Shown: one piece after another, positions 17,549 through 53,017 of the stretch | How positions within the stretch are numbered: the stretch's first letter is position 1 | How the letters are laid out: the number at the start of each line of letters is the position of its first letter | Source of the DNA: a virus | Taxonomy: Duplodnaviria; Caudoviricetes | IMG/VR virus record: IMGVR_UViG_3300028048_000072 | Coordinates: 32,001-96,000 of that record | Length of the DNA: 64,000 nucleotides | Strand: one strand, 5' to 3' | The notes under the pieces: generated by a model | The model's database searches: none | Seen by the model: the letters and a program-made list of their open reading frames with translations, nothing else | What the model was told of the DNA's origin: nothing | Translations under genes and position numbers: made by a program

Positions 17549-17971
17549 ATGATTATGAACTACAAAACACTTAAAAAGGAACTTACTAAACTTGCAAAGG
17601 CAAATAATGTTTGTCTTACATTTGGTGAAAAGAAACAGTTTGAAAAAGGTTGTTTTTTGATTACTAATCATGGATTTGTAAAAGGTTCTGATGGTGTTGT
17701 AGAAGTTGAATCAGAAATTCCTTCTAATGCAAATTGGACTTCTCGTGGCAAAGGTTATTGGATGCATGATGAAAATGGCAAGGCTACAGAATATCGTGAT
17801 GTTGTACATTGGAGTTATAGGGAATATTCTATTGTAGATGTTGAGAAGATATTCAATCATTATGGTAGAATGGTTCTTGAATCTGCAGATTGTTATAACG
17901 ATTCAAAATATGGAAAACATGATTTGCTCAAGACTTATCGTGTTTATTTATCAGAAGAATATTTGAAATAA
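17549..17971 (+). CDS. hypothetical protein
   Basis: ORF after TTGACC-17-TATATT promoter. Confidence 0.65.
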   Translation: MIMNYKTLKKELTKLAKANNVCLTFGEKKQFEKGCFLITNHGFVKGSDGVVEVESEIPSNANWTSRGKGYWMHDENGKATEYRDVVHWSYREYSIVDVEKIFNHYGRMVLESADCYNDSKYGKHDLLKTYRVYLSEEYLK

Positions 17972-17983
17972 AGGAGTAATGAT

Positions 17984-18304
17984 ATGTCATTAAATGAATT
18001 GATTAGATTTGCTAAAATGCATAATATTGATTTTGATAAAGATATTATTTGTGTATCACAAGTTGACGGTGAAATTTATTTAGATAATCTCGAACAGATT
18101 GCTATGAAAGAAACAGATGAAGGAAATAAACTTGTGGTTATTCCTTTTGTGTATTCTTATGATGCTGATATGAATAAAGAATTTGAATTTTGTGATACTG
18201 TAAACTCATGTGATGATGATGCTTATGACAGATGTTCAAATTGTGGTTCATCAAATACATCTAAAGATGGATTTGTTTATTTGTCTGATGAATACTTGAA
18301 ATAA
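17984..18304 (+). CDS. hypothetical protein with CxxC
   Basis: ORF with AAGGAG RBS. Confidence 0.65.
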   Translation: MSLNELIRFAKMHNIDFDKDIICVSQVDGEIYLDNLEQIAMKETDEGNKLVVIPFVYSYDADMNKEFEFCDTVNSCDDDAYDRCSNCGSSNTSKDGFVYLSDEYLK

Positions 18305-18385
18305 GTAAATGAATGAAAAAAAAAAGGCTATAATTTAATTTATAGTCTTTTTCATTATAACTATTATATTTATGGAGATAATATC

Positions 18386-18964
18386 ATGGAAATTAAAGAT
18401 GAATTTGATTTTAGAGATTTAATGAATAAATGTTGGAGTGGTGCTAAAAATACACTTGAAATGATTGAAGATAAGGGATATGAAGATGAACTTATGTCAC
18501 ATTTGGAAGATGTATTTTATGGTGATATTCCAACTTTAACAGAAGTAAATGATTATCTTTGGTTTGAAGAAGATGCAATCAAAGAAGCATTGGGAATTTT
18601 TGAACTTGATGAAAAAATTAATATTTCAGAAGTTGAAAAAGCAAATGATAACCTTGCAGATTGGCGAAAGCCTAGAATGATTACTGATGGTGATTTAATT
18701 GCTTATGATGATTTAATGGATGGTTCAATGTCTGAATCTGATTTGTCAGAACAAATCGATGAAATCACTACAAAAATTGGTGAAGTTAATGACAAAGTAG
18801 ATGAACTTCTTGATGTAGATAACGAAGATGATTTTGATACTACTAAAGATGAACTTTATGATTTGGTAAATGAACTTGATAATCTCATTATCGATTATGT
18901 AAAAGATAATACAAAAGTTTACAAAGAAATTGAAGATATTTGTGAAACATTTGAAAACCTTTAA
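18386..18964 (+). CDS. acidic hypothetical protein
   Basis: ORF, GGAG RBS, TAACTAT upstream. Confidence 0.7.
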   Translation: MEIKDEFDFRDLMNKCWSGAKNTLEMIEDKGYEDELMSHLEDVFYGDIPTLTEVNDYLWFEEDAIKEALGIFELDEKINISEVEKANDNLADWRKPRMITDGDLIAYDDLMDGSMSESDLSEQIDEITTKIGEVNDKVDELLDVDNEDDFDTTKDELYDLVNELDNLIIDYVKDNTKVYKEIEDICETFENL

Positions 18965-19022
18965 TTTATAATAAATAAGGCTAGACTTAAAAAAATCTAG
19001 CCTTACTTTTAAGGAAATACAT

Positions 19023-19295
19023 ATGAGAGATATTAGAAATAAACAATTGAGAGCAAAACTTGATAAATTAGGAATTAAAGATGTTGTTCTTAATTTTGAC
19101 AATGGATTCGTAGATGTTTGGTCAGAAGATGATTTGACAGATACAATTCTTCATTATACAGATAATTCAATCGAAACTAGATTATTTTCTGATTATACAG
19201 TTGATGAATGGGTGGATATGATTAAAGATATTTTTGATGATGGTTTAGAACATTATGAACGAAGAAATTCTAAGAATACGATTATTCTTAAATAG
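19023..19295 (+). CDS. hypothetical protein
   Basis: ORF with AAGGA RBS. Confidence 0.65.
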   Translation: MRDIRNKQLRAKLDKLGIKDVVLNFDNGFVDVWSEDDLTDTILHYTDNSIETRLFSDYTVDEWVDMIKDIFDDGLEHYERRNSKNTIILK

Positions 19296-19337
19296 AAGCA
19301 ATCAGTTTAACTATATTTAATTGAGGAGTGAATATTT

Positions 19338-19643
19338 ATGTACGTTATAAATGATGAAGATTTAATTTATAAAGTTCGTATAGATAAACAAGATATTGTT
19401 GATTATGGCGATGAAAAATCATACATGATTATAAAACTTGATTTAGTTTGTGGAAAAGATTGGATAGAAGTTAATTCTTATGGAGGAACACAAGGTTGGA
19501 TTCCTCCTGAATATTTCGTTGATGAAGTTCAGTTTGAACAAGTTGTATGCTATTTCTATGAAGAAAGTATAATTAATGTTCTTGAAGAAAATGGATTCAA
19601 AGAAATTAAGAAACTTCCAAAGATTGAAAAACCAAAAGAATAA
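19338..19643 (+). CDS. acidic hypothetical protein
   Basis: ORF, GAGGAG RBS, TAACTAT upstream. Confidence 0.65.
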   Translation: MYVINDEDLIYKVRIDKQDIVDYGDEKSYMIIKLDLVCGKDWIEVNSYGGTQGWIPPEYFVDEVQFEQVVCYFYEESIINVLEENGFKEIKKLPKIEKPKE

Positions 19644-19659
19644 ATAGGAGAATAAAATT

Positions 19660-20263
19660 ATGAATATTAAAGAACGTTCAGAAGAAAATGAAATTATTGT
19701 TTCAGAACTTCTAGATACAGTTGAGTATTTTTTGTGGATTGTTTGAAGAACTAGGAGAACTTAAAGGAAATGCGTTAAAAGACCTTAAAAATGCGGTAGA
19801 AAGACTTGAAGTGTTTAATTCTATAGGTTCTATTTATCAATGGGGAGTTGAAGTTTTGAATAAATGTGGAATTAAATATAAAGGCTTGAAAGAAAGCAAG
19901 AAATCTATGAAAGAATCTAAAGAATATAATTTTGATTATTTTTATCAATTATTAAAAGATGATAAACATTTTTCTGTAAATTATGCTCATGATGATTTAC
20001 CTGATGATGATACAGTTTATGCAAATGGAACAGTTGATGTTAAATGGTTTATAGATGGAAAAAGATTAAATCATTCGGCTATTCTCTCAATACCTTGCTT
20101 TAGTATGGTATTTACATATGAAGGTCTTTTGTTTAATTGTGAACGTGGTAGTAGATATGATTCTATAATCGGATATGCAGATATTTCAGATGTTCGTTTT
20201 ACGTCAGATGTACTTAGTTTGTTATTAGTAAATGGATTAAGAGTTACATTTAACTTGTATTAA
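19660..20263 (+). CDS. modular protein with ESKKS linker; apparent frameshift at T6 run 19728-19733
   Basis: RBS + ATG 19660 (MNIKE...) joins the 19721 ORF if one T is removed; LKESKKSMKES. Confidence 0.55.
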
Positions 20264-21084: not shown

Positions 21085-21963
21085 ATGATTAAAAAGTTCA
21101 TTTATGGTCAAGAAATCATAGATTTCCTTGAAGAATATGGTTACAATAAGCGTGGTGAAGATTTTGAACAACATAAAGATTATTCTACAGTAACATATAT
21201 GTATGCTATTCCTAAAGGTATGCGACCACAAACACCTTATGTAGAATTTACAGTGGATGCAGATAATGATGCATTTATCTTTGGTGAATATTTTACAGAT
21301 GGTAGAAAAGGATATTCAACAGAATTTGATTCTGTAGAAGATTTGGAATATTTTGTTTCTAATGCAAATTATAAAAATTCAGATTTGACAGAATCTAAAA
21401 ATATTCCAACAATTGAAGGTAATTATAAAGCAAATGATGGAAATGACTATTATAACATTGCATTAAATCTTGAAAATGGTGATTTTGTAAGAATTAAAAA
21501 TGCTAGTTGTACCGCTGTAGCAGAAGAAATGGCATGTGAATATTTTAATGTTCCTTGTAATGCTATGACTTATAAAACTATTAAAATTATTTTTATGGGA
21601 ACTTCACCAAATCTTGATTTGAATAAAATCCCTAAGAAATATCAGAAATATTTCAATAAAATCAATGAATCTAAAAAATCATTGAAAGAATCTACAATTG
21701 AAAAAGATATTGAAGATTATGTTTATAATAAAGTATCTTCTTTATATGATTCTATTGTAGAAGTAACATATAATGATAATGATGAACTTGTTATTAAAAT
21801 TGGTGTATGGGATTTGTATGGAACTAATAAAGCAGATAAAATTTCATCAATGTTATCAAGAGATAATTATTTCATGAAAATGGTAGATAATACTGATAGA
21901 ATTTGTAAGTTGTCAATTTATGATGTTGAAAAACCATCTGTATATCGTGTAGACCAAATCTAA
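21085..21963 (+). CDS. three-module protein with LTESK / INESKKSLKES linkers
   Basis: ORF translation. Confidence 0.7.
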   Translation: MIKKFIYGQEIIDFLEEYGYNKRGEDFEQHKDYSTVTYMYAIPKGMRPQTPYVEFTVDADNDAFIFGEYFTDGRKGYSTEFDSVEDLEYFVSNANYKNSDLTESKNIPTIEGNYKANDGNDYYNIALNLENGDFVRIKNASCTAVAEEMACEYFNVPCNAMTYKTIKIIFMGTSPNLDLNKIPKKYQKYFNKINESKKSLKESTIEKDIEDYVYNKVSSLYDSIVEVTYNDNDELVIKIGVWDLYGTNKADKISSMLSRDNYFMKMVDNTDRICKLSIYDVEKPSVYRVDQI

Positions 21964-22069: not shown

Positions 22070-22981
22070 ATGAAAACATACGGATTGCCATATAAGGGAA
22101 GTAAAGATAAAATTGCCGATAAAATTTGTTCTTTGTTTCCTATTCGTGAAAACTTTTATGATTTATTTATGGGCGGAGGCAGTATAATCCATTATCAATT
22201 GTTACAAGATAATTATAAAAATTATTTTGCCAATGATTTTAATTCTTTAGTAGTAAAAGCATTTAACATGGCTATTCATGGAAAATTTAAGAATGAAAAT
22301 AGATGGATTAGTCATGAAGATTTTGATAAATTAAAAAATATAGACCCTTATGTTGCGTTCTGCTTCAGTTTTGGAAACGATTTAAAGTCATACGCATATG
22401 GTAAAGACATAGAATCTTATAAAAAAGCATTACATTATTTAGTGATTTTTCAAGATGAAAGTTTAATGAAACAATTATTTCTAAACGTAGATTTTTCTTT
22501 TGTACACGATATTAAAGATATTAATAATCGAAGATTGAAAGTAAAAAGAGTTATCGATAATATCTTGAATGAAGATGATAATAGAATAAGAAGCAATGAA
22601 TCTTTACAATCATTAATTCAATTAGAATCTGTTCAAAGGCTCGAATCGGTGAAAAGGCTCGAAATTTTTTCGGCAAGTTATGATGAAATAAAAATTAAAC
22701 CTAATTCTGTTATATATTGTGATATTCCTTATAAATCCACAAACAAATATGAGATTTCCAAAGATTTTGATTATGATAAATTTTATAATTGGTGTGAAAA
22801 ACAAACTGAATTATGCTTTATTTCAGAATATAATATGCCAAAAGATAGATTTACATGTATAGCAGAATTTAAACATAGAAGTATTATATCTGCAAAAGAA
22901 AATCAATCTGTAATAGAAAGAGTTTTCTTACCGAATCATCAAGTAAAAGATTATAAACCTAATGATATATTTAATATGTAA
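22070..22981 (+). CDS. D12/Dam-class N6-adenine DNA methyltransferase
   Basis: PYKGSK, DLFMGGGS, YCDIPY. Confidence 0.85.
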   Translation: MKTYGLPYKGSKDKIADKICSLFPIRENFYDLFMGGGSIIHYQLLQDNYKNYFANDFNSLVVKAFNMAIHGKFKNENRWISHEDFDKLKNIDPYVAFCFSFGNDLKSYAYGKDIESYKKALHYLVIFQDESLMKQLFLNVDFSFVHDIKDINNRRLKVKRVIDNILNEDDNRIRSNESLQSLIQLESVQRLESVKRLEIFSASYDEIKIKPNSVIYCDIPYKSTNKYEISKDFDYDKFYNWCEKQTELCFISEYNMPKDRFTCIAEFKHRSIISAKENQSVIERVFLPNHQVKDYKPNDIFNM

Positions 22982-26995: not shown

Positions 26996-27227
26996 ATATG
27001 TCTGTAAAAATTGTGGAAATACTCAAATTTTAGATATTCCTATGGGAAATGATTTACCAAATAAAATTGCTTGTGTAAAGTGTGAAACTTTTATGTTTCA
27101 AGACTATAGCGATAAAATGAACGGATTAAGAATCGGATTGGATTTTCAAGCAACAAGCGAATTTAAACCTAAAAATTATAACATTGGTGGTAGTTCAGAT
27201 TTGGAATCTTATAGAGAAGATTTGTAA
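26985..27227 (+). CDS. FmdB-like zinc ribbon protein
   Basis: MKYKYVCKNCG...CVKC; RBS before ATG 26985. Confidence 0.65.
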   Translation: MKYKYVCKNCGNTQILDIPMGNDLPNKIACVKCETFMFQDYSDKMNGLRIGLDFQATSEFKPKNYNIGGSSDLESYREDL

Positions 27228-27251: not shown

Positions 27252-28751
27252 ATGAAAAAATTTCTTGAAGGTTGTGAAAAAGTTGGGAATTTATATCGTA
27301 TTAGAGAAACAATTTCTATTGGTGGTGATAAAGTAGAAAAACTCCCAATTAAAGAATCTAAAGTTATTGTAGAAGGAAAAGAATATAATGTTGGTAAATC
27401 TTATAGATTTAAGATTTGGGATTCAGACCCTACAGAAAAAGGATTTAATGCTAATGGTAGAAACTATTGCCATCTTGTTGAAAAAGCAAAGAATATGACT
27501 AATTTAGTAACATTATCTTTGGCAGACCATCCTGAAGATGGAAACGAATCTGTTACTAGATATTGTGGTGTAGAAAAAAACGTTAGACTTGATGATGATG
27601 GTTGGTTGAGTTATGAATTCATTCCTATTGGTGAATATGGAAGAAATATTTGTGAAATTATTGATAATGGTGGATATATTGAAATGTCAAGTTCTATATT
27701 AGGTGATTTGGATGATAATGGATATGTTATTGCAGAATCGGCAACTATCGAAAGGCTCGGAGATTGGGTAGTAAATTGTTCAAATCGTCTTTTACAATAT
27801 TCTAACAAAACAGAAGTTCATACCGATGAAGGAAATAATGAATTTATGTGTGATGAAGGTTGTAATTCAACTATTTATGATAATGAAGAAATAAAAGAAT
27901 CTGTAGTAAATAAGCGTGGAAATAACGCTACAGATTTAAATATTAAGGAGAAAAAAATGCCTGATAACGAATTATTAGAAGCATCTTTGAAAATGAATAT
28001 TAAATCTATTATTAAAGATGCGGATAAGGTTGAAAATCTTTATGAAAAGAAAGATTTGTTAGTGTCGGCTCATGACTACGCAGAAAAACTTACAGACAAA
28101 ACATTACTCAATGAAACATCTGATAAGATTGCGAAAGTTGATGAAGAATTAAAAACTTTAACTGAAAAAGGTCTTAAAACAGATGAACTTGAAGAAAATG
28201 TTAAAAATCTTGAAAAAGAAAATTTAATCATTGCAAAGGATTCTGCAAAACTTGAAGAAGAAAAGAATTCCATTAAGGAAAAATATGAAATTCTTTCTAA
28301 GATGTATGAAGAAAAACAATTCAAGGCATCTAAGATTGAATTGGAAAGAAATCATAACCTTTCTAAAGAAGTATGTTCTTTGAAGTTAAAGGCTCGTAAA
28401 CAAGAAAATACTATCCTTTCTCTTAAAAAAGAAAACAGACTTTTGAAAGAAAAAATGGATAAATTGTCTGCTATGTCTAATGGTAAAGTAGATGCAGAAA
28501 TTGTAAAAGATTTGAATGAACAGATTGAAGAATTGACAAATAAAAATGTTCGTCTTTCTGAAAGTCTTAAATCTTTGAGAAAAGAAAAACTCGAATCTGT
28601 AAATAGAACATCAAGATTTAGTAGATTTGAAGAAGCAAAAAATCGTTTACCAAAACGTGATTCTATTATGAAATCTTCAACAATCGTTGAAAATAAAGAA
28701 TTCGATGATGAAGATGCAAAAATGGAAAAAATGCTTAGTGGTAACATTTAA
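27252..28751 (+). CDS. T4 gp21-like prohead protease fused to coiled-coil scaffold
   Basis: NANGRNY, LADHP, MSSSILG, DWVVNCS correspond to gp21 NxNGRxY, HP, SSRG, DxVxxPS; C-terminal coiled coil. Confidence 0.75.
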   Translation: MKKFLEGCEKVGNLYRIRETISIGGDKVEKLPIKESKVIVEGKEYNVGKSYRFKIWDSDPTEKGFNANGRNYCHLVEKAKNMTNLVTLSLADHPEDGNESVTRYCGVEKNVRLDDDGWLSYEFIPIGEYGRNICEIIDNGGYIEMSSSILGDLDDNGYVIAESATIERLGDWVVNCSNRLLQYSNKTEVHTDEGNNEFMCDEGCNSTIYDNEEIKESVVNKRGNNATDLNIKEKKMPDNELLEASLKMNIKSIIKDADKVENLYEKKDLLVSAHDYAEKLTDKTLLNETSDKIAKVDEELKTLTEKGLKTDELEENVKNLEKENLIIAKDSAKLEEEKNSIKEKYEILSKMYEEKQFKASKIELERNHNLSKEVCSLKLKARKQENTILSLKKENRLLKEKMDKLSAMSNGKVDAEIVKDLNEQIEELTNKNVRLSESLKSLRKEKLESVNRTSRFSRFEEAKNRLPKRDSIMKSSTIVENKEFDDEDAKMEKMLSGNI

Positions 28752-30095: not shown

Positions 30096-32705
30096 ATGAT
30101 AAATGAAATCGAATTTTCTGATAACGTCAGAAGTAAAATGCTCAATGGTATGGAAAAGGTTTCTAAAGTAGTAAGTGCTACACTCGGCCCGAAAGGAAGA
30201 TTGATTGCCGTTGAACAACAGTTGGGTTCACCTATTTTGTCAAAAGATGGTGTTTTTTGTGCAAAAGCCGTAGGTAAACTCAAAGACCCTTATGAAAATA
30301 TGGGTGCAAATCTTTTGAAAGAAGTTTCTTCTAAAACTAATGAAACTGATGGTGACGGCCCGCAACCTCTTTATGCAAAAGTTCTTACACCAAATGGATT
30401 TGTAAGAATTGATTCATTGAAAATTGGTGATGAAATTTGTAGAATTGATGGAACTACACAGAAAGTAATTGGTATTTTCCCTAAAGGAAAGAAAGAACTT
30501 TATAGGGTTCATTTTGACCACGGGGATTATGTTGAATGTTGTGCAGACCATTTGTGGACAGTAACAAATACAAATTCTTCATCTAAAAAATTGCAAACAT
30601 TAACTGTTTCTGAAATGATTGAAAAAGGAATTTATAGAAATAATAAAGAATATAAATCTAGTAAATTTTTTGTTCCAAACAATAAATCATTTTTTAATAC
30701 AAAAAATGTTGTACTTGACCCATTCTTAGTTGGTGTTTTGATTGGAGATGGTTGTTTTACAGAAAAACAAGATTATTGTGAAATTACTATCGGATACAAA
30801 AAAGAACAGAAAATTATTCCAAATTTGGTTTTGCCTGAAGGAATTTTCCTAAAGAGAAATGATTATCCTAAGCGAAACGCATGTAGATTTAAGTTTGAAG
30901 GTAAAACAAAAGATGGTAAAACAATGCTCGATTTGTTGAAAGATATTGGTTTGTTTGGATGTAATTCATTTACAAAACACATTCCTACAGATTATTTGAT
31001 TAATTCTTTTGAAAATCGTGAAAAATTGTTGAATGGTCTTATGGTTACAGACGGTTATCTTAATTATAAAAATCTATTTGAATATAGCACCGTAAGTAAA
31101 CAGTTGTGTGATGATATTGTTTTCTTGTTTAAGAGTTTGGGAATTGATGTTTATACACAATTAAAAGAAAGAAGTATTGAAAAAGGTGCTTTTTCTAATA
31201 CACCCGTTTATAGAATTTCTCAATTGAAAGGATATAAATATGGTAGACGAATTACTGCTATTGAAGATATGCACAAAGAAGAGGAAATGATGTGTATTAA
31301 AGTTAGTGGTGATGAAGAACTTTATATTACTGATAATTTTATCACTACTCATAATACTTCAACTTCTTGTGTACTCGCATTTGCAATGGCAAAAGAAGGA
31401 ATGAAAGCCGTTAGTGGTGGTGTACCACCTATTTCACTTAAACGTGGTATTGATAAAGCATGTGAAAAAGTTATTGAAGAAATTAAGAAAGTAACAAAAC
31501 CAATTGAAAGTAATGAAGATTTAATTCATATTGCTACAATTTCTGCAAACAATGATGAATCTATCGGTTCTATTATTGCCGAAGCCGTAGAAAAAGTTGG
31601 TAAAAACGGTGTAATTACTACGGGCGAATCTTCTACATCAGAAACAACAATTGAATTTATGGAAGGTATGCGATTTGATAGAGGTATGTTGTCACCATAC
31701 TTTACTACAAATAATACTAATGGACTTATTTGTGAATATAAAAATCCATATATTCTTGTTACTGATAAAAATATTACAAATATTAATGAAATTGCAGGTA
31801 TTCTACAAACTGTATCTCAAAGTGGTAGACCGTTGGCAATCGTTTGTGATGACATGTCTAATGAAGTTCTTACTGTTTTGGTAAAGAATAAACTTAATGG
31901 TGCATTGCCATCAGTAGTTGTAAAAGCACCTTATTTTGGTGAAGTAAAAAAAGCCTTTTTGGAAGATTTGGCTATTTTGGTCGGGGCAACATACTTTACA
32001 GATGCAATCGGAAATTCCATCAATAAATGTACTATTAATGATTTGGGTTCATCTGAATCAATTAAATGTACTAAAGATGATACAATTATTGTTGGTGGAA
32101 ATGGTGATTCTGCAGAAATTGAAAATCGTGTAAATATTATTAATTCACAGATTAAAGTTGAAAAGAAAGATTTTAATTTGGAAAAACTTAGAGAACGATT
32201 AGCAAAATTGTGTGGTGGAGTTGCTATTGTAAAAGTTGGTGCAAATTCTGATACAGAAATGGAAGAAAAGAAACATCGTGTAGAAGATACTTTGTCTGCA
32301 ACACGTTCTGCTCTTGAAGGTGGAATTGTTTGTGGTGGTGGAGTAACACTTGCTAGAATTTCAAAAACACTTTCTGATGTAAAAACAGAAGATGAAGATG
32401 AAAAGCGTGGTGTAGAAATTGTTGCTAAGGCTCTTACAGAATTAGTAAAGTGTATTGCTAATAATGCGGGATTTAATGGTGATGTTATTCTTAATAAGAT
32501 TCTTGAAGATGATAATATGAATAACGGATATGATTTTAGTAAGCATACTCTTGTTTATGAAAATATCTTTGATAAAGGTATTGTAGACCCTGCAAATGTA
32601 GAAATTTCTGCTATTAAAAACGCATCTTCCGTAGTAGGACTTATTCTTATGACAGAAGGTGGAATTGTCATGGTAAATGACGAAAACGATAAATGTAAAA
32701 AATAA
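30096..32705 (+). CDS. groEL: chaperonin GroEL with intein
   Basis: TLGPKGR, SKDG, GDG|TST, EGMRFDRG, KAPYFG, GGG; RBS before ATG 30096. Confidence 0.95.
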   Translation: MINEIEFSDNVRSKMLNGMEKVSKVVSATLGPKGRLIAVEQQLGSPILSKDGVFCAKAVGKLKDPYENMGANLLKEVSSKTNETDGDGPQPLYAKVLTPNGFVRIDSLKIGDEICRIDGTTQKVIGIFPKGKKELYRVHFDHGDYVECCADHLWTVTNTNSSSKKLQTLTVSEMIEKGIYRNNKEYKSSKFFVPNNKSFFNTKNVVLDPFLVGVLIGDGCFTEKQDYCEITIGYKKEQKIIPNLVLPEGIFLKRNDYPKRNACRFKFEGKTKDGKTMLDLLKDIGLFGCNSFTKHIPTDYLINSFENREKLLNGLMVTDGYLNYKNLFEYSTVSKQLCDDIVFLFKSLGIDVYTQLKERSIEKGAFSNTPVYRISQLKGYKYGRRITAIEDMHKEEEMMCIKVSGDEELYITDNFITTHNTSTSCVLAFAMAKEGMKAVSGGVPPISLKRGIDKACEKVIEEIKKVTKPIESNEDLIHIATISANNDESIGSIIAEAVEKVGKNGVITTGESSTSETTIEFMEGMRFDRGMLSPYFTTNNTNGLICEYKNPYILVTDKNITNINEIAGILQTVSQSGRPLAIVCDDMSNEVLTVLVKNKLNGALPSVVVKAPYFGEVKKAFLEDLAILVGATYFTDAIGNSINKCTINDLGSSESIKCTKDDTIIVGGNGDSAEIENRVNIINSQIKVEKKDFNLEKLRERLAKLCGGVAIVKVGANSDTEMEEKKHRVEDTLSATRSALEGGIVCGGGVTLARISKTLSDVKTEDEDEKRGVEIVAKALTELVKCIANNAGFNGDVILNKILEDDNMNNGYDFSKHTLVYENIFDKGIVDPANVEISAIKNASSVVGLILMTEGGIVMVNDENDKCKK
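30360..31355 (+). mobile_element. class 3 intein (Pro1) with LAGLIDADG endonuclease in GroEL
   Basis: PQPL start, DHLW, MMCIKV, THN|T; VGVLIGDG and NGLMVTDG. Confidence 0.9.
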
Positions 32706-42557: not shown

Positions 42558-42731
42558 AGTTGAAAAATATACAAATTTATTATACAATAAATTCATCTTA
42601 AATAAGTGGAGAATTGTTATGGATGAACTTACAAAAAATTTCTTACAAAAGAAACAATATTTAATTTATAGTAAATATATTTTTGTAGATAACTATCTAA
42701 TATAAAGAATAAATATATTTTAGGAGATATT

Positions 42732-43896
42732 ATGTCATAACTTAATTTTAGAATTTTATAAACCAACTTATAATCTTGATTTTGATTATGATGGTGACGG
42801 TGGATTGGATTTACATTTCACAAACATTAAAGGTGAGTTCTTCATGACAATGAATGACAGTTATAATTCTGTTTACATTGAAGATGAAGATTGTGAATTC
42901 TCAAAAGGTGAAATGTTTGCTACTGTAGATTTGGGCGACTTGGTTGAAAGAATTGTTCAAGGTGAATTCAGACAGACTAATGGAAAAGCAGTTAGTGATT
43001 GGGGTAAACGATTCATTGGTGATGGTGAAGAAAGAATAGAATTTAATGGTAAGAATTATGCAGATGGCTTATCATTTTGGAATGATTTCTTTAAGGAAAT
43101 GCCAAAAGATGAAATTAAAGATTTCATGACATTCTGTGAAGATTACCTTTATTTGCCGAACATTGAAGTTGATACTGTTTCAGATAAGTATGATTTTGAA
43201 AACGGCAAAGTTGAATTAAAATCTAATGGTAAATGGGGTATTACCATTAATGATGATTACACAATTATTTCAGTTGATGAATTTACTTGTAATTCTACAG
43301 ACGCTTGTGATACTTATGATGTTGCAAGTTCTGAATCAGATGTAGATGATTATTATGAATCAAAGAAATCTGTAAGAAAATCTTTGAAAGAAGGAATTGA
43401 TGTTAAAATCGTATATTGGGACGACACCCCTACAGATTATCTTGACGATGTTACAAGAAATGATATTATTGATTTGGAAAATGACGCAAATGTTTATAAA
43501 ATCATCGATGTAACTAATGGCAAGAAGAAAACAATTTATTTGGATGAATCAAAGAAATCTGCTAGAAAATCTTTGAAAGAATCAACAGATGAAGATTTTT
43601 CACTTTATGACCTTAATAAACACGACCCTTTTGTAAAAGAATGGGTTAAAAATATCAATAAAGAACTTAAAGATGTTTCTATTGAATCAATTGGTGATGA
43701 TGAAATTGTATTTAGAGTTTGGTTTGATGAAACTATGGATTTGGATATTTTTGATGATATCGTAACCGATTGTATGCCTAAAACATTAATTGAGTTTATG
43801 TCTGATATGAATATTGATTTTGGTTATCAGTTTGTGTATGAAGATGATAAATTTACAGAAAATGATTTTGTATTTATCAGATTTGTAGCATGGTAA
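42732..43896 (+). CDS. acidic three-module protein with two ESKKSxRKSLKE linkers; 5' end apparently frameshifted
   Basis: RBS + ATG 42732 is 1 nt out of frame with the open frame running to 43896. Confidence 0.6.
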
Positions 43897-43912
43897 TATA
43901 GGAGAAAATAGT

Positions 43913-44470
43913 ATGAATAAAATTTTTAATGAACTTGAAAAATATTGCGATAGACATTCTGTTAAATTGCAAATTGATGAATTTCCCAAAGATAAAAATA
44001 GATTTGAAATAACACTTGATAATTTTATATATGAAGAATTGAGCGATATTCGTAACATTATTCGAGATTTTGCTAAAATAGAAGATGATGTTCATTTAGC
44101 AGGAAATGGTAGAGCAATTGATATTTATATTGAAGATTTAAATGAATCAAAGTCTATGAAAGAATCTGTAGATGGAAAATTCGCTACAGATGAAGAATGT
44201 AATATGGCTGGTGAAGGTTGGATTCTTGAAGGTACATATAATTTCATAATGGAATTTCTTGAAGAATGGGGAATCGCACCTACAGATGTGATACCTCAAA
44301 AACATGATACACTTGCTTTGTATAACACTGATGGAAATGTTTTTGGATATTGCCACCATGATGATGAAGTTGATATTTATGTAGTTGATAAAGAAATCAA
44401 TTATTTTTGGAAAAATTACAAGCCTTCAACTAAGCGTGTAAAAGTAACTGCTTTTGATGAAATATTTTAA
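43913..44470 (+). CDS. two-module protein with LNESKSMKES linker
   Basis: ORF translation. Confidence 0.7.
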   Translation: MNKIFNELEKYCDRHSVKLQIDEFPKDKNRFEITLDNFIYEELSDIRNIIRDFAKIEDDVHLAGNGRAIDIYIEDLNESKSMKESVDGKFATDEECNMAGEGWILEGTYNFIMEFLEEWGIAPTDVIPQKHDTLALYNTDGNVFGYCHHDDEVDIYVVDKEINYFWKNYKPSTKRVKVTAFDEIF

Positions 44471-44502
44471 TTAAAAATAAATTATGGGGGGGGGAATTAA
44501 AT

Positions 44503-45081
44503 ATGGCTAGTGAATTTGATGTTTATTCTTTTGTAAAAGGTGAATTTGGAGTAGAAATTGTAGGTCAAGGAAAAAATGGAACTTATGACACAGTTCATCT
44601 ATATATTCAACCTTTTAGTAGAAATAATGATAAATTGGCGGTTGATGAATATGTAGGAAGATATGCAGAAACACCAAGTTGGTCTAAAATATTCACTCTT
44701 TCAGAAAATGATTTATCTGACGCAATAAAAATATACAACAATTATGTTGTATCTAGCGATAGAATAGATATTCACATGATTGATAAAGAAATTTATAAAG
44801 AAGTAAAAATGAGATTGAATGATATTTTTGAAATAAAAGAATCAAAGAAATCTGTCAGAAAATCTTTGAAAGAAAAAGTTACAGTTGCTAAATCATTGAA
44901 AATTATAGAATGTGCTTTGTTGGATTTGATTCATGATGACACAATTCAAGAAGAGTTTAATATGGCTTTTGATGATGTTGATGGCATTTATGATTCTGTA
45001 GATGATATGTTTGAAGTTAGCGTACATAATGTACTGAATAAACTTCTTAAAGAACATACAATTACTGTGTTGCCGTTTTAA
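44503..45081 (+). CDS. two-module protein with ESKKSVRKSLKE linker
   Basis: ORF translation; G9 tract in RBS position. Confidence 0.7.
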   Translation: MASEFDVYSFVKGEFGVEIVGQGKNGTYDTVHLYIQPFSRNNDKLAVDEYVGRYAETPSWSKIFTLSENDLSDAIKIYNNYVVSSDRIDIHMIDKEIYKEVKMRLNDIFEIKESKKSVRKSLKEKVTVAKSLKIIECALLDLIHDDTIQEEFNMAFDDVDGIYDSVDDMFEVSVHNVLNKLLKEHTITVLPF

Positions 45082-45275
45082 TTAAAAATTTTGTAAAATC
45101 ATTGAAACGATAAAACTTCTGTAGTATAATAAAAGTATTAAATCGATTTTGTATAAAAGTCTTGATAAAACTGTATAAATTTTATCAAGACTTTATGTAA
45201 AATTCTACTTGAAAAATAGATAAATTATCTGATTTAGACTTGAAAGAATATTGTAAAGTGGATAGGATGTAAACG

Positions 45276-52247: not shown

Positions 52248-53017
52248 ATGAGTATAGAATTAATTAAAGGTGATTGTCTTAAAGAAATGAAAAATATTAA
52301 AGATGAATCTGTGCAACTTATTCTTACAGATTTACCTTATGGTACTACACCTTTAGAATTTGATAAAGAGATAATTCCTTTTGAACCTTTATGGAAAGAA
52401 TATAAAAGAATTATTAAGAAAAATGGTGCTATTGTATTATTTGCTCAACAACCTTTTACAAGTAAATTAATCATGTCTAATTTAGATATGTATAAATATA
52501 ATTGGATATGGGTAAAAGATAATGCAACAAATTTCTTGAATAAACGTTATCAATGTGGAAAGATTACGGAAGATATTTGTGTATTTGGAAAAGGTGCATG
52601 TTCTTTTACTAAGAATGGTATTAATATGAAATATAATCCACAAATGGAAGTTGGAAAACCGTATAAAACTACTAATAATGTGTTTAGAAGAAAGTGTGCG
52701 GTCGTGAGGGGGGGATTAGAAATGTCGATACAATAAATAATGGTGAAAGATTGCCAAATAATTTATTGTATTTTTCACATGATACAGATGAAAGATTGCA
52801 TCCTACACAAAAGCCTTTAGATTTAATTAGATATTTGATTAAGACTTATACTGATGAAAATGATTTGGTTTTAGATTCGTGCATGGGAAGTGGAACTACT
52901 GCTATAGGATGTTTTGCAGAAAAGAGAAATTTTATCGGATATGAAATTGATGATAATTATTTTGAAATTGCAAAGAAAAGATATGAAAAAGTAAGTACAA
53001 GTATATTTGATATGTAA
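52248..53017 (+). pseudogene. N4/N6 DNA methyltransferase split at a G7 tract (52708-52714)
   Basis: DLPYG in ORF1; HPTQKP and LDSCMGSGT in ORF2; G8 would fuse them. Confidence 0.85.

Follow-up and report, generated by a model that had tools for sequence, protein, structure and literature searches.

The internal head proteins of the T-even phages form a diverse cargo that has only a targeting and cleavage signal in common (PMC3012670). They are processed by gp21 and injected (PMC3012670, PMC9026906, PMC12373910), and Ip1-3 of T4 block different GmrSD nucleases (PMC3012670, PMC12373910). This set is the nearest known system to the proteins that we describe here from a 64,000-nucleotide stretch of phage DNA (IMG/VR record IMGVR_UViG_3300028048_000072, positions 32,001 to 96,000), referred to below as the window. 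The proteins resemble beads on a string, in which unrelated and independently exchangeable acidic modules of about 50-170 amino acids (aa) are separated by one conserved peptide, the linker. They are encoded by a block of three open reading frames (ORFs) on the + strand, ORF1, ORF2 and ORF3, flanked by long intergenic regions, and by two further genes starting at 19721 and 21085 (Table 1). The window is part of a 132.7-kb virus record (G000) with 26.7% G+C and a CheckV completeness of about 72%. We see somewhat less than an even chance that the linker is cut by a prohead protease of the gp21 type and that the modules are packaged as capsid cargo, a chain of steps predicted from sequence.

The likeness to the T4 internal proteins (IPI, IPII, IPIII and Alt) is threefold. 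The phage has a protease predicted to adopt the gp21 fold, a short hydrophobic-x-Glu signal precedes small and highly diverse modules, and the set varies between relatives, with modules of 50-170 aa as compared with 76 aa for IPI*. Hypervariable modules next to a conserved signal, as expected of T4-type cargo, are also present in related phages. In T4, however, each gene carries an N-terminal leader of 10 residues, whereas here the signal is internal and repeated within one polypeptide. Several candidate cargos are strung together without a common leader, they are strongly acidic, and, unlike the T4 proteins, they are known from sequence alone.

Other described systems share single aspects of this arrangement. 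Head proteins of giant phages are cut at many x-x-Glu sites (PMC5694885). In phiKZ, 201phi2-1 and SPN3US, the paralogous head-internal proteins are cut by a gp21-related S80 protease, but they have long propeptides and [S/A/G]-x-E sites instead of a fixed 12-residue linker at cassette borders, and module shuffling at the cut sites is not described for them. Polyvalent proteins combine two to fifteen unrelated domains, for which delivery together with the DNA and proteolytic release have been proposed (Iyer et al., 2017, PMC5512222). The linker proteins likewise join unrelated domains, from two to at least seven modules per polypeptide. Polyvalent proteins, in contrast, contain recognizable conflict domains, mostly along with an embedded peptidase. 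Neither is detectable here, and polyvalent proteins lack a uniform linker.

A parallel for the exchange of modules is provided by the PeSL cassettes in the hyperplastic regions of T4-type phages, which consist of an intergenic promoter and stem-loop and shuffle whole accessory genes (PMC2839356, PMC4122927). In both cases, a short conserved repeat found throughout the genome is the crossover point for modular shuffling in T4-type phages. Unlike the PeSL cassettes, the junction described here lies in frame within ORFs, it keeps a fixed peptide despite varying codons, and protein modules are shuffled. In polymorphic toxins, pre-toxin motifs (VENN in CdiA and PxxxxDPxGL in Rhs) border a swappable C-terminal module and serve as recombination homology, the Rhs motif being a cleavage point as well. 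Those toxins differ from the linker proteins in having one border per protein, in being bacterial and in being accompanied by immunity genes. A search of the full-text literature for the linker peptide found no paper.

One linker between exchangeable modules

The 36-nucleotide (nt) pattern GAATCAAAGAAATCTGNNAGAAAATCTTTGAAAGAA occurs exactly three times, on the + strand and with 0 mismatches (linkers 1 to 3 in Table 1), at the same places where a first-pass annotation of the window had noticed a repeat. In 100 dinucleotide-preserving shuffles, 0 matches were expected. All three copies lie in frame within ORF1 and ORF3 and code for ESKKS[V/A/V]RKSLKE. The consensus over all relatives is phi-x-E-S-K-K-S-x-[RK]-K-S-[LMI]-K-E-[S/G], of which the 12-residue core starts at E-S-K-K. 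The shorter linkers in ORF2 and in the genes at 19721 and 21085 proved equally real, with the correction that two of them begin at 44144 and 19892, the annotated positions 44138 and 19886 having taken in two upstream residues.

The genome is low in G+C and rich in K and E, and the similarity between linkers could in principle be a chance product of low complexity in such an AT-rich, Lys/Glu-rich proteome. The shuffles refute this explanation, and so does the distribution of the linker: a degenerate DNA pattern for it was found only in 5 IMG/VR stretches and 25 metagenome contigs. The probability of chance similarity is therefore practically nil. Four of the five stretches come from known relatives, and one is a new fragment encoding the same protease family; the 25 contigs carry further linker-bearing ORFs. 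Because the pattern is restricted to these stretches and contigs, the linker characterizes a single small group of phages. The protein family is confined to this group, whose members are rumen phages, low in GC and distantly T4-like; the phage of the window, an uncultured one, also encodes a T4-type portal (PF07230) and sheath. Five related loci were found in IMG/VR, where the records of L004 and L005 are fragments; one linker protein from the databases, P0047, had no relatives in IMG/VR.

An exhaustive HMMER search with ORF1 retrieved about 50 real relatives, in which the matches land on separate modules. We cut the relatives at the linkers and clustered the pieces into module families. The segments flanking the linkers were unrelated to one another, in agreement with the first description of the linkers as separating unrelated domains. 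The clustering gave at least 48 module families in about 50 proteins, with two up to at least seven modules per protein, and nearly every architecture was unique. ORF1 of the window reads A-link-B-link-C, while its homologues read A-link-D-shortlink-C in L001, A-link-E-link-D-shortlink-C in L003 and A-link-L-link-E-link-D-shortlink-C in L002. ORF3 is I-link-H in the window, F-link-G-link-H in L001 and L003 and F-link-H in L002. A different phage, L004, encodes M-link-B-link-N, and in the database fragment P0014 module A is fused straight to H. Modules of ORF2 and of the proteins at 19721 and 21085 recur after full linkers in the chains of relatives, among them the second module of ORF2 (P0003 and P0025) and modules of the 21085 protein (P0016, P0018, P0021 and P0029).

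Module B illustrates how the exchange proceeds. Its DNA is ~95% identical between the window and L004, where the neighbouring modules differ on both sides, and the similarity starts within the upstream linker and stops within the downstream one. More generally, BLAST alignments that end internally do so within a linker in 37% of cases, as opposed to 13% for random positions. These results show that modules pass from gene to gene and from phage to phage by exchange at the linker. The earlier suggestion that linker DNA serves as homology for domain shuffling is thus borne out by breakpoints within linkers and a variable module order; a fixed domain order in all relatives, which had been named as evidence to the contrary, was not found, the order being highly variable. 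Even without cleavage, the recombination of at least 48 module families at one 12-residue junction is clearly documented, and shuffling at the linker is a clean natural case of exon-like domain exchange in an intron-less virus.

The modules were also correctly described as acidic at first sight: the segments between linkers have isoelectric points (pI) of 4.05-4.83 and net charges of -6 to -26, compared with a median pI of 5.3 for the proteome. Not every junction is intact. In the three-module protein at 21085, one linker has decayed to LTESKNIPTIEG, and relatives have a full ESKK...KE linker at that junction. The decayed form at a place where relatives keep the full linker implies that junctions can erode into permanent fusions.

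Conservation of the linker peptide and its predicted cleavage

In a set of 69 full linkers, no variation was seen at E1, S2, K11 and E12 and almost none at K3, K4 and K8, with S5 and S9 close behind. Position 10 is occupied by L, M or I (40, 16 and 12 linkers), it is followed by K11 and E12 in 69/69, and the next residue is S in 34 and G in 10. Two positions before Glu1, there is often Y, L, F or I. We surveyed the codons of 53 distinct DNA copies of the linker from 28 sequences. Ser9 is encoded by TCA in 19, TCT in 18 and AGT in 13 copies; Lys3 and Lys11 each use both lysine codons, and Leu10 is TTG, TTA or CTG. Because serine is kept through both TCN and AGT codons, selection acts on the amino acid, and the survey shows that the peptide itself, beyond its DNA, is under strong purifying selection. 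A signal at the level of RNA or DNA, such as the 7-bp inverted repeat TCAAAGA...TCTTTGA or a site of frameshifting, was rejected as the cause of the conservation, since the peptide stays fixed among distant copies whose silent sites differ.

The same data bear on the idea that the peptide sequence of the linker is without function and that the linker is a neutral, soluble hinge, homogenized by recombination or gene conversion and convenient for crossing over. The breakpoints within the linker would fit such a hinge, as would the identity of the three window copies at 34/36 nt, rare codons included, with differences in the variable codon only. AAG and TTG are, moreover, overused at fixed positions in all lineages: AAG encodes Lys3 in 72% of copies compared with 16% genome-wide, and where position 10 is Leu, its codon is TTG in 81% of cases compared with 26% in the genome. 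However, the 69 copies show little or no variation at seven residues despite differing synonymous codons, and the TCN and AGT families of serine codons cannot be interconverted by one silent change. Flexible hinges normally drift fast, and the adjoining modules have diverged more than the linkers, with a mean pairwise identity of 72% for module B, the best-kept module, and of 79% for all linkers whatever their context. We therefore regard a neutral hinge as improbable. Part of the codon choice may stem from the avoidance of long A runs.

The enzyme that would cut the linker is encoded at 27252. Its AlphaFold model (residues 1-240) has a predicted local distance difference test (pLDDT) score of 77 and matches only T4 gp21, PDB entry 5JBL chains A-C, with E values of 6e-5 to 1e-4 and a probability of 1.0. 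The template modelling (TM) score normalized by the target is 0.62-0.64, and nothing else was found below an E value of 0.08. An Atlas search with 27252 points likewise to the S77 and S80 families. In 20 homologues, His93, Ser146/147, Glu167 and Asp171 are invariant. Neither Pfam and PHROG nor the Pfam hidden Markov model (HMM) of S77 gave a match to 27252; the Peptidase_S78, Phage_capsid, Peptidase_S77 and Gp23 HMMs matched nothing in the record, and the latter two nothing in four relatives either. The structural model and the invariant His, Ser and acidic residues agree with the first-pass annotation, which had already spoken of a protease at 27252, and there is good support for a prohead protease whose predicted fold is that of T4 gp21. 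A coiled coil is predicted for the C-terminal ~260 residues, which gives the protein the appearance of a protease fused to a scaffold.

Cleavage by T4 gp21 takes place after the Glu of L/I-X-E, and gp21 has LIE-9 near its own N-terminus (PMC9026906). The end of the linker, [LMI]-K-E before S or G, matches this rule as a motif. The N-terminus of the 27252 homologues, M-x-K-F-L-E-G, is nearly invariant, and in the window it reads M-K-K-F-L-E/G (the slash marks the presumed cut), F-L-E/G being a parallel to LIE-9 of gp21. A candidate maturation site, M-T-E/AMQTGG, is also present in the major capsid protein (locus L017), located where its similarity to other capsid proteins begins; in the relative G001, in which this protein is 66% identical, the corresponding residues are M-K-E/A. 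The capsid protein was recognized by tblastn to annotated capsid proteins and matched no capsid model of Pfam or PHROG, and its N-terminal ~103 residues are Lys/Glu-rich and lineage-specific. Modules that have moved to the first position of a chain also retain the end of the linker. Module B placed first keeps a stub, MRFNE-, MRLKE-, MNLKE- or MELKE-, before GIDIK..., module M placed first keeps AIKE- or the whole linker, and one G001 protein begins with MIMESKKGNKKSLKE-.

The proposed mechanism would run as follows. One late gene would load several small acidic proteins into the prohead as a chain, and the prohead protease would cut after Glu12 in [LMI]-K-E, possibly with a second cut after Glu1 that would release a basic 11-mer. 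The separated modules would then leave the prohead with the DNA, in a polyprotein version of T4's internal proteins, and the in-frame linker would let the phage population reshuffle its cargo. Alternatively, a host protease or an unrecognized phage protease could cut the linkers in the cytoplasm, the polyproteins serving to provide equal amounts of their parts with no packaging involved. A conserved peptide between modules does behave as a polyprotein site, and no capsid-targeting leader was found; however, no other peptidase was found near the linker genes or in the searches made, which covered part of the genes, and the site suits the one protease that is present. Cleavage by another protease thus appears very unlikely.

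If the linker proteins are indeed cut by the prohead protease and packaged, the internal-protein system of T4 would have a polyprotein form in which a single late gene loads many small proteins, and single modules could be exchanged as easily as whole genes through the in-frame linker. The phage group would then offer a large stock of candidates for injected effectors, which may be defence-system inhibitors, together with a defined protease site and a cargo rule usable for protein packaging. That the modules act against host defences is a guess, drawn by analogy from T4 Ip1-3. The most comprehensive version, in which one Glu-ended peptide would be cut site, perhaps targeting element, and border of a recombination cassette for a shufflable library of at least 48 injected acidic proteins, plausibly defence inhibitors, is put forward tentatively.

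Timing, gene context and the uncut alternative

In a k-mer screen of upstream regions, the heptamer TAACTAT was strongly enriched upstream of genes. Of its 45 genome copies, 36 are intergenic, with intergenic DNA making up 9% of the genome, and almost every copy is directed at the following gene, whose start lies 5-65 nt away. The motif often takes the form [AT]TAACTAT[AT]T and has no -35 partner. It precedes the genes for the tail sheath, the gene after the sheath, the tail lysin, the protease and the baseplate, in G001 also those for the portal and capsid proteins, whereas replication genes have no TAACTAT nearby. Six of the seven linker genes of G001 lie at most 1 kb downstream of a copy, compared with 34% of all genes. 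By analogy with the late -10 element of T4, TAACTAT is a candidate late promoter of the phage group, and one copy lies 42 nt before the ancestral start of ORF1. In L001-L003, ORF1 directly follows another small gene.

Several observations weigh against cleavage and packaging. The linker genes sit between an SNF2 helicase gene and genes for DNA methyltransferases and a polymerase, and such replication and methylase neighbours weaken the case for late timing; the late-promoter role of TAACTAT is itself argued from analogy, and a sigma-70-like site is also present upstream of ORF1, in a region no richer in such sites than shuffled sequence. The first modules have no common leader, as 19 families start differently (MSEHNLILEF, MANKIIFGAD, MIIDLILDRK, MASEFDVYSF and others). 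It had been proposed that the N-termini are related, but 6/19 first-module families have [LIMF]-x-E within their first 14 residues, compared with 27% of all proteins of these phages, a frequency no higher than chance, and the idea of an N-terminal leader was rejected. Because there is no common leader, targeting to the prohead could be accounted for only if the core were bound by the linkers themselves. A few of the junctions have decayed, like the one at 21385, or are minimal (ESLKES forms), so that an intact site is not needed at every junction. The strong acidity of the modules is odd for proteins packed against DNA.

Further points concern the linker DNA, the modules and ORF1. Common descent or gene conversion of the DNA also shapes the linker, as the overuse of rare codons indicates. 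Pfam, PHROG and NCBIfam searches with the five linker proteins of the window gave no annotated family, the sole match being to a weak, unannotated PHROG for the 21085 protein, and recognized no conflict or enzymatic domain and no embedded peptidase; an Atlas search with module A gave no lead. The AlphaFold2 model of ORF1, built from a mosaic alignment, was poor (pLDDT 53), with the linkers and modules A and B left unmodelled. Module C was modelled as a generic alpha/beta sandwich (best Z 7.9, BFVD E above 0.01), whose matches are equally generic, so that no function can be read from its fold. Taken together, these searches and models detected no family and no informative fold for the modules. 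No match to cultured phages was obtained by tblastn, either with ORF1 or with the protease.

ORF1 has, in addition, lost its start in the window. Compared with L001-L003, a 5-nt deletion after ATGT produces ATG TCA TAA (42732-42740), and the ~100 nt past the deletion are still almost identical to the relatives. Position 42732, at which the first-pass annotation of the region began, is thus not the start of ORF1 in the window but does mark the ancestral ATG, the start codon in all relatives. Consequently, ORF1 of the window is without the 39-residue N-terminal extension (MSEHNLILEFYKPTYNLDFDYDGDGG...) of all relatives, which align from residue 40. The loss reflects either an error in the assembly or a truncation that happened very recently.

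A number of these observations suit the view that the chains stay uncut as multi-domain cytoplasmic proteins, acidic inhibitors or DNA mimics for takeover or counter-defence, in which the linker is some other functional peptide as well as the crossover point. The linker could then act in binding, form a basic patch or be phosphorylated (KKS/RKS). The position of the genes, the sigma-70-like site, the first modules without a shared targeting leader and the tolerance of decayed linkers would all be expected of such proteins, and known DNA-mimic anti-restriction proteins are acidic, like the modules. Yet the best-kept residues of the linker are the two Glu and [LMI]-K-E-[S/G], precisely the gp21-type rule, and it is only this stub that first-placed modules retain. 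Furthermore, TAACTAT is common to linker and structural genes, and the uncut proteins would have no known partner or kinase. We consider uncut proteins unlikely, though well worth keeping in view.

Coordinates and further observations

The features of the linker genes, the protease and capsid genes and the candidate promoters are listed in Table 1.

Table 1. Linker genes, modules and associated features (positions in the window unless stated otherwise).
Feature	Position	Strand	Remarks
ORF1	ATG 42844 (or TTG 42805) to 43896	+	
ORF1 module A	42844..43356	+	171 aa; pI 4.05; net charge -26
Linker 1	43357..43392	+	ESKKSVRKSLKE
ORF1 module B	43393..43545	+	51 aa; promiscuous, >12 different neighbour families on each side in relatives
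Linker 2	43546..43581	+	ESKKSARKSLKE
ORF1 module C	43582..43896	+	104 aa; sole confidently modelled part of ORF1
ORF2	43913..44470	+	modules of 77 and 101 aa; short linker ESKSMKE 44144-44164
ORF3	44503-45081	+	
ORF3 module I	44503..44838	+	112 aa; F or F-G occupy its place in relatives
Linker 3	44839..44874	+	ESKKSVRKSLKE
ORF3 module H	44875..45081	+	68 aa; kept in relatives after differing N-terminal modules
Two-module protein, second cluster	19721..20263	+	short linker ESKKSMKE 19892-19915
Three-module protein	21085..21963	+	decayed linker 21385-21420; short linker ESKKSLKE 21667-21690
Predicted prohead protease, T4 gp21 fold	27252..28751	+	fold in residues 1 to about 200; coiled-coil tail; TAACTAT at 27225
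Major capsid protein (locus L017)	17923-19461 of G000, outside the window	-	512 aa
TAACTAT, candidate late promoter of ORF1	42690..42696	+	42 nt before the ancestral ORF1 start
TAACTAT heading the second acidic cluster	18358..18364	+	further copy 19308-19314
TAACTAT examples in the window	18358, 19308, 27225, 29137, 29516, 42690, 59395		
Sigma-70-like TTGAAA-17-TACAAT	42560..42588	+	upstream of the operon; consensus match only

A run of nine G (44486-44494) lies 8 nt before the start of ORF3 and is the sole G or C run of at least 8 in the 132-kb record. In G001, two such G9 runs follow an ATG as ATGGGGGGGGG, which would read M-G-G-G and resembles the FMGGG motif of the window methyltransferase at 22070. 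The G9 run is a possible site of slippage or phase variation. Similarly, a seven-G run (52708-52714) is found where a methyltransferase frame splits into the overlapping ORFs 52248-52736 and 52694-53017, which could be due to a frameshift or phase variation.

Genome G001 has between 80 and 93 kb (locus L010) a block that is absent from the record of the window. It holds three radical-SAM genes, an Fe-S oxidoreductase gene and an HNH nuclease gene, and we rejected it as a candidate head module on account of the radical-SAM and HNH genes. Behind ORF3, the region 45102-45210 contains a near-consensus sigma-70-like site, TTGAAA-17-TATAAT, with 11/12 matches. Between this site and the methyltransferase genes lies an inverted repeat that is AT-rich (CTTGATAAAA...TTTTATCAAG).

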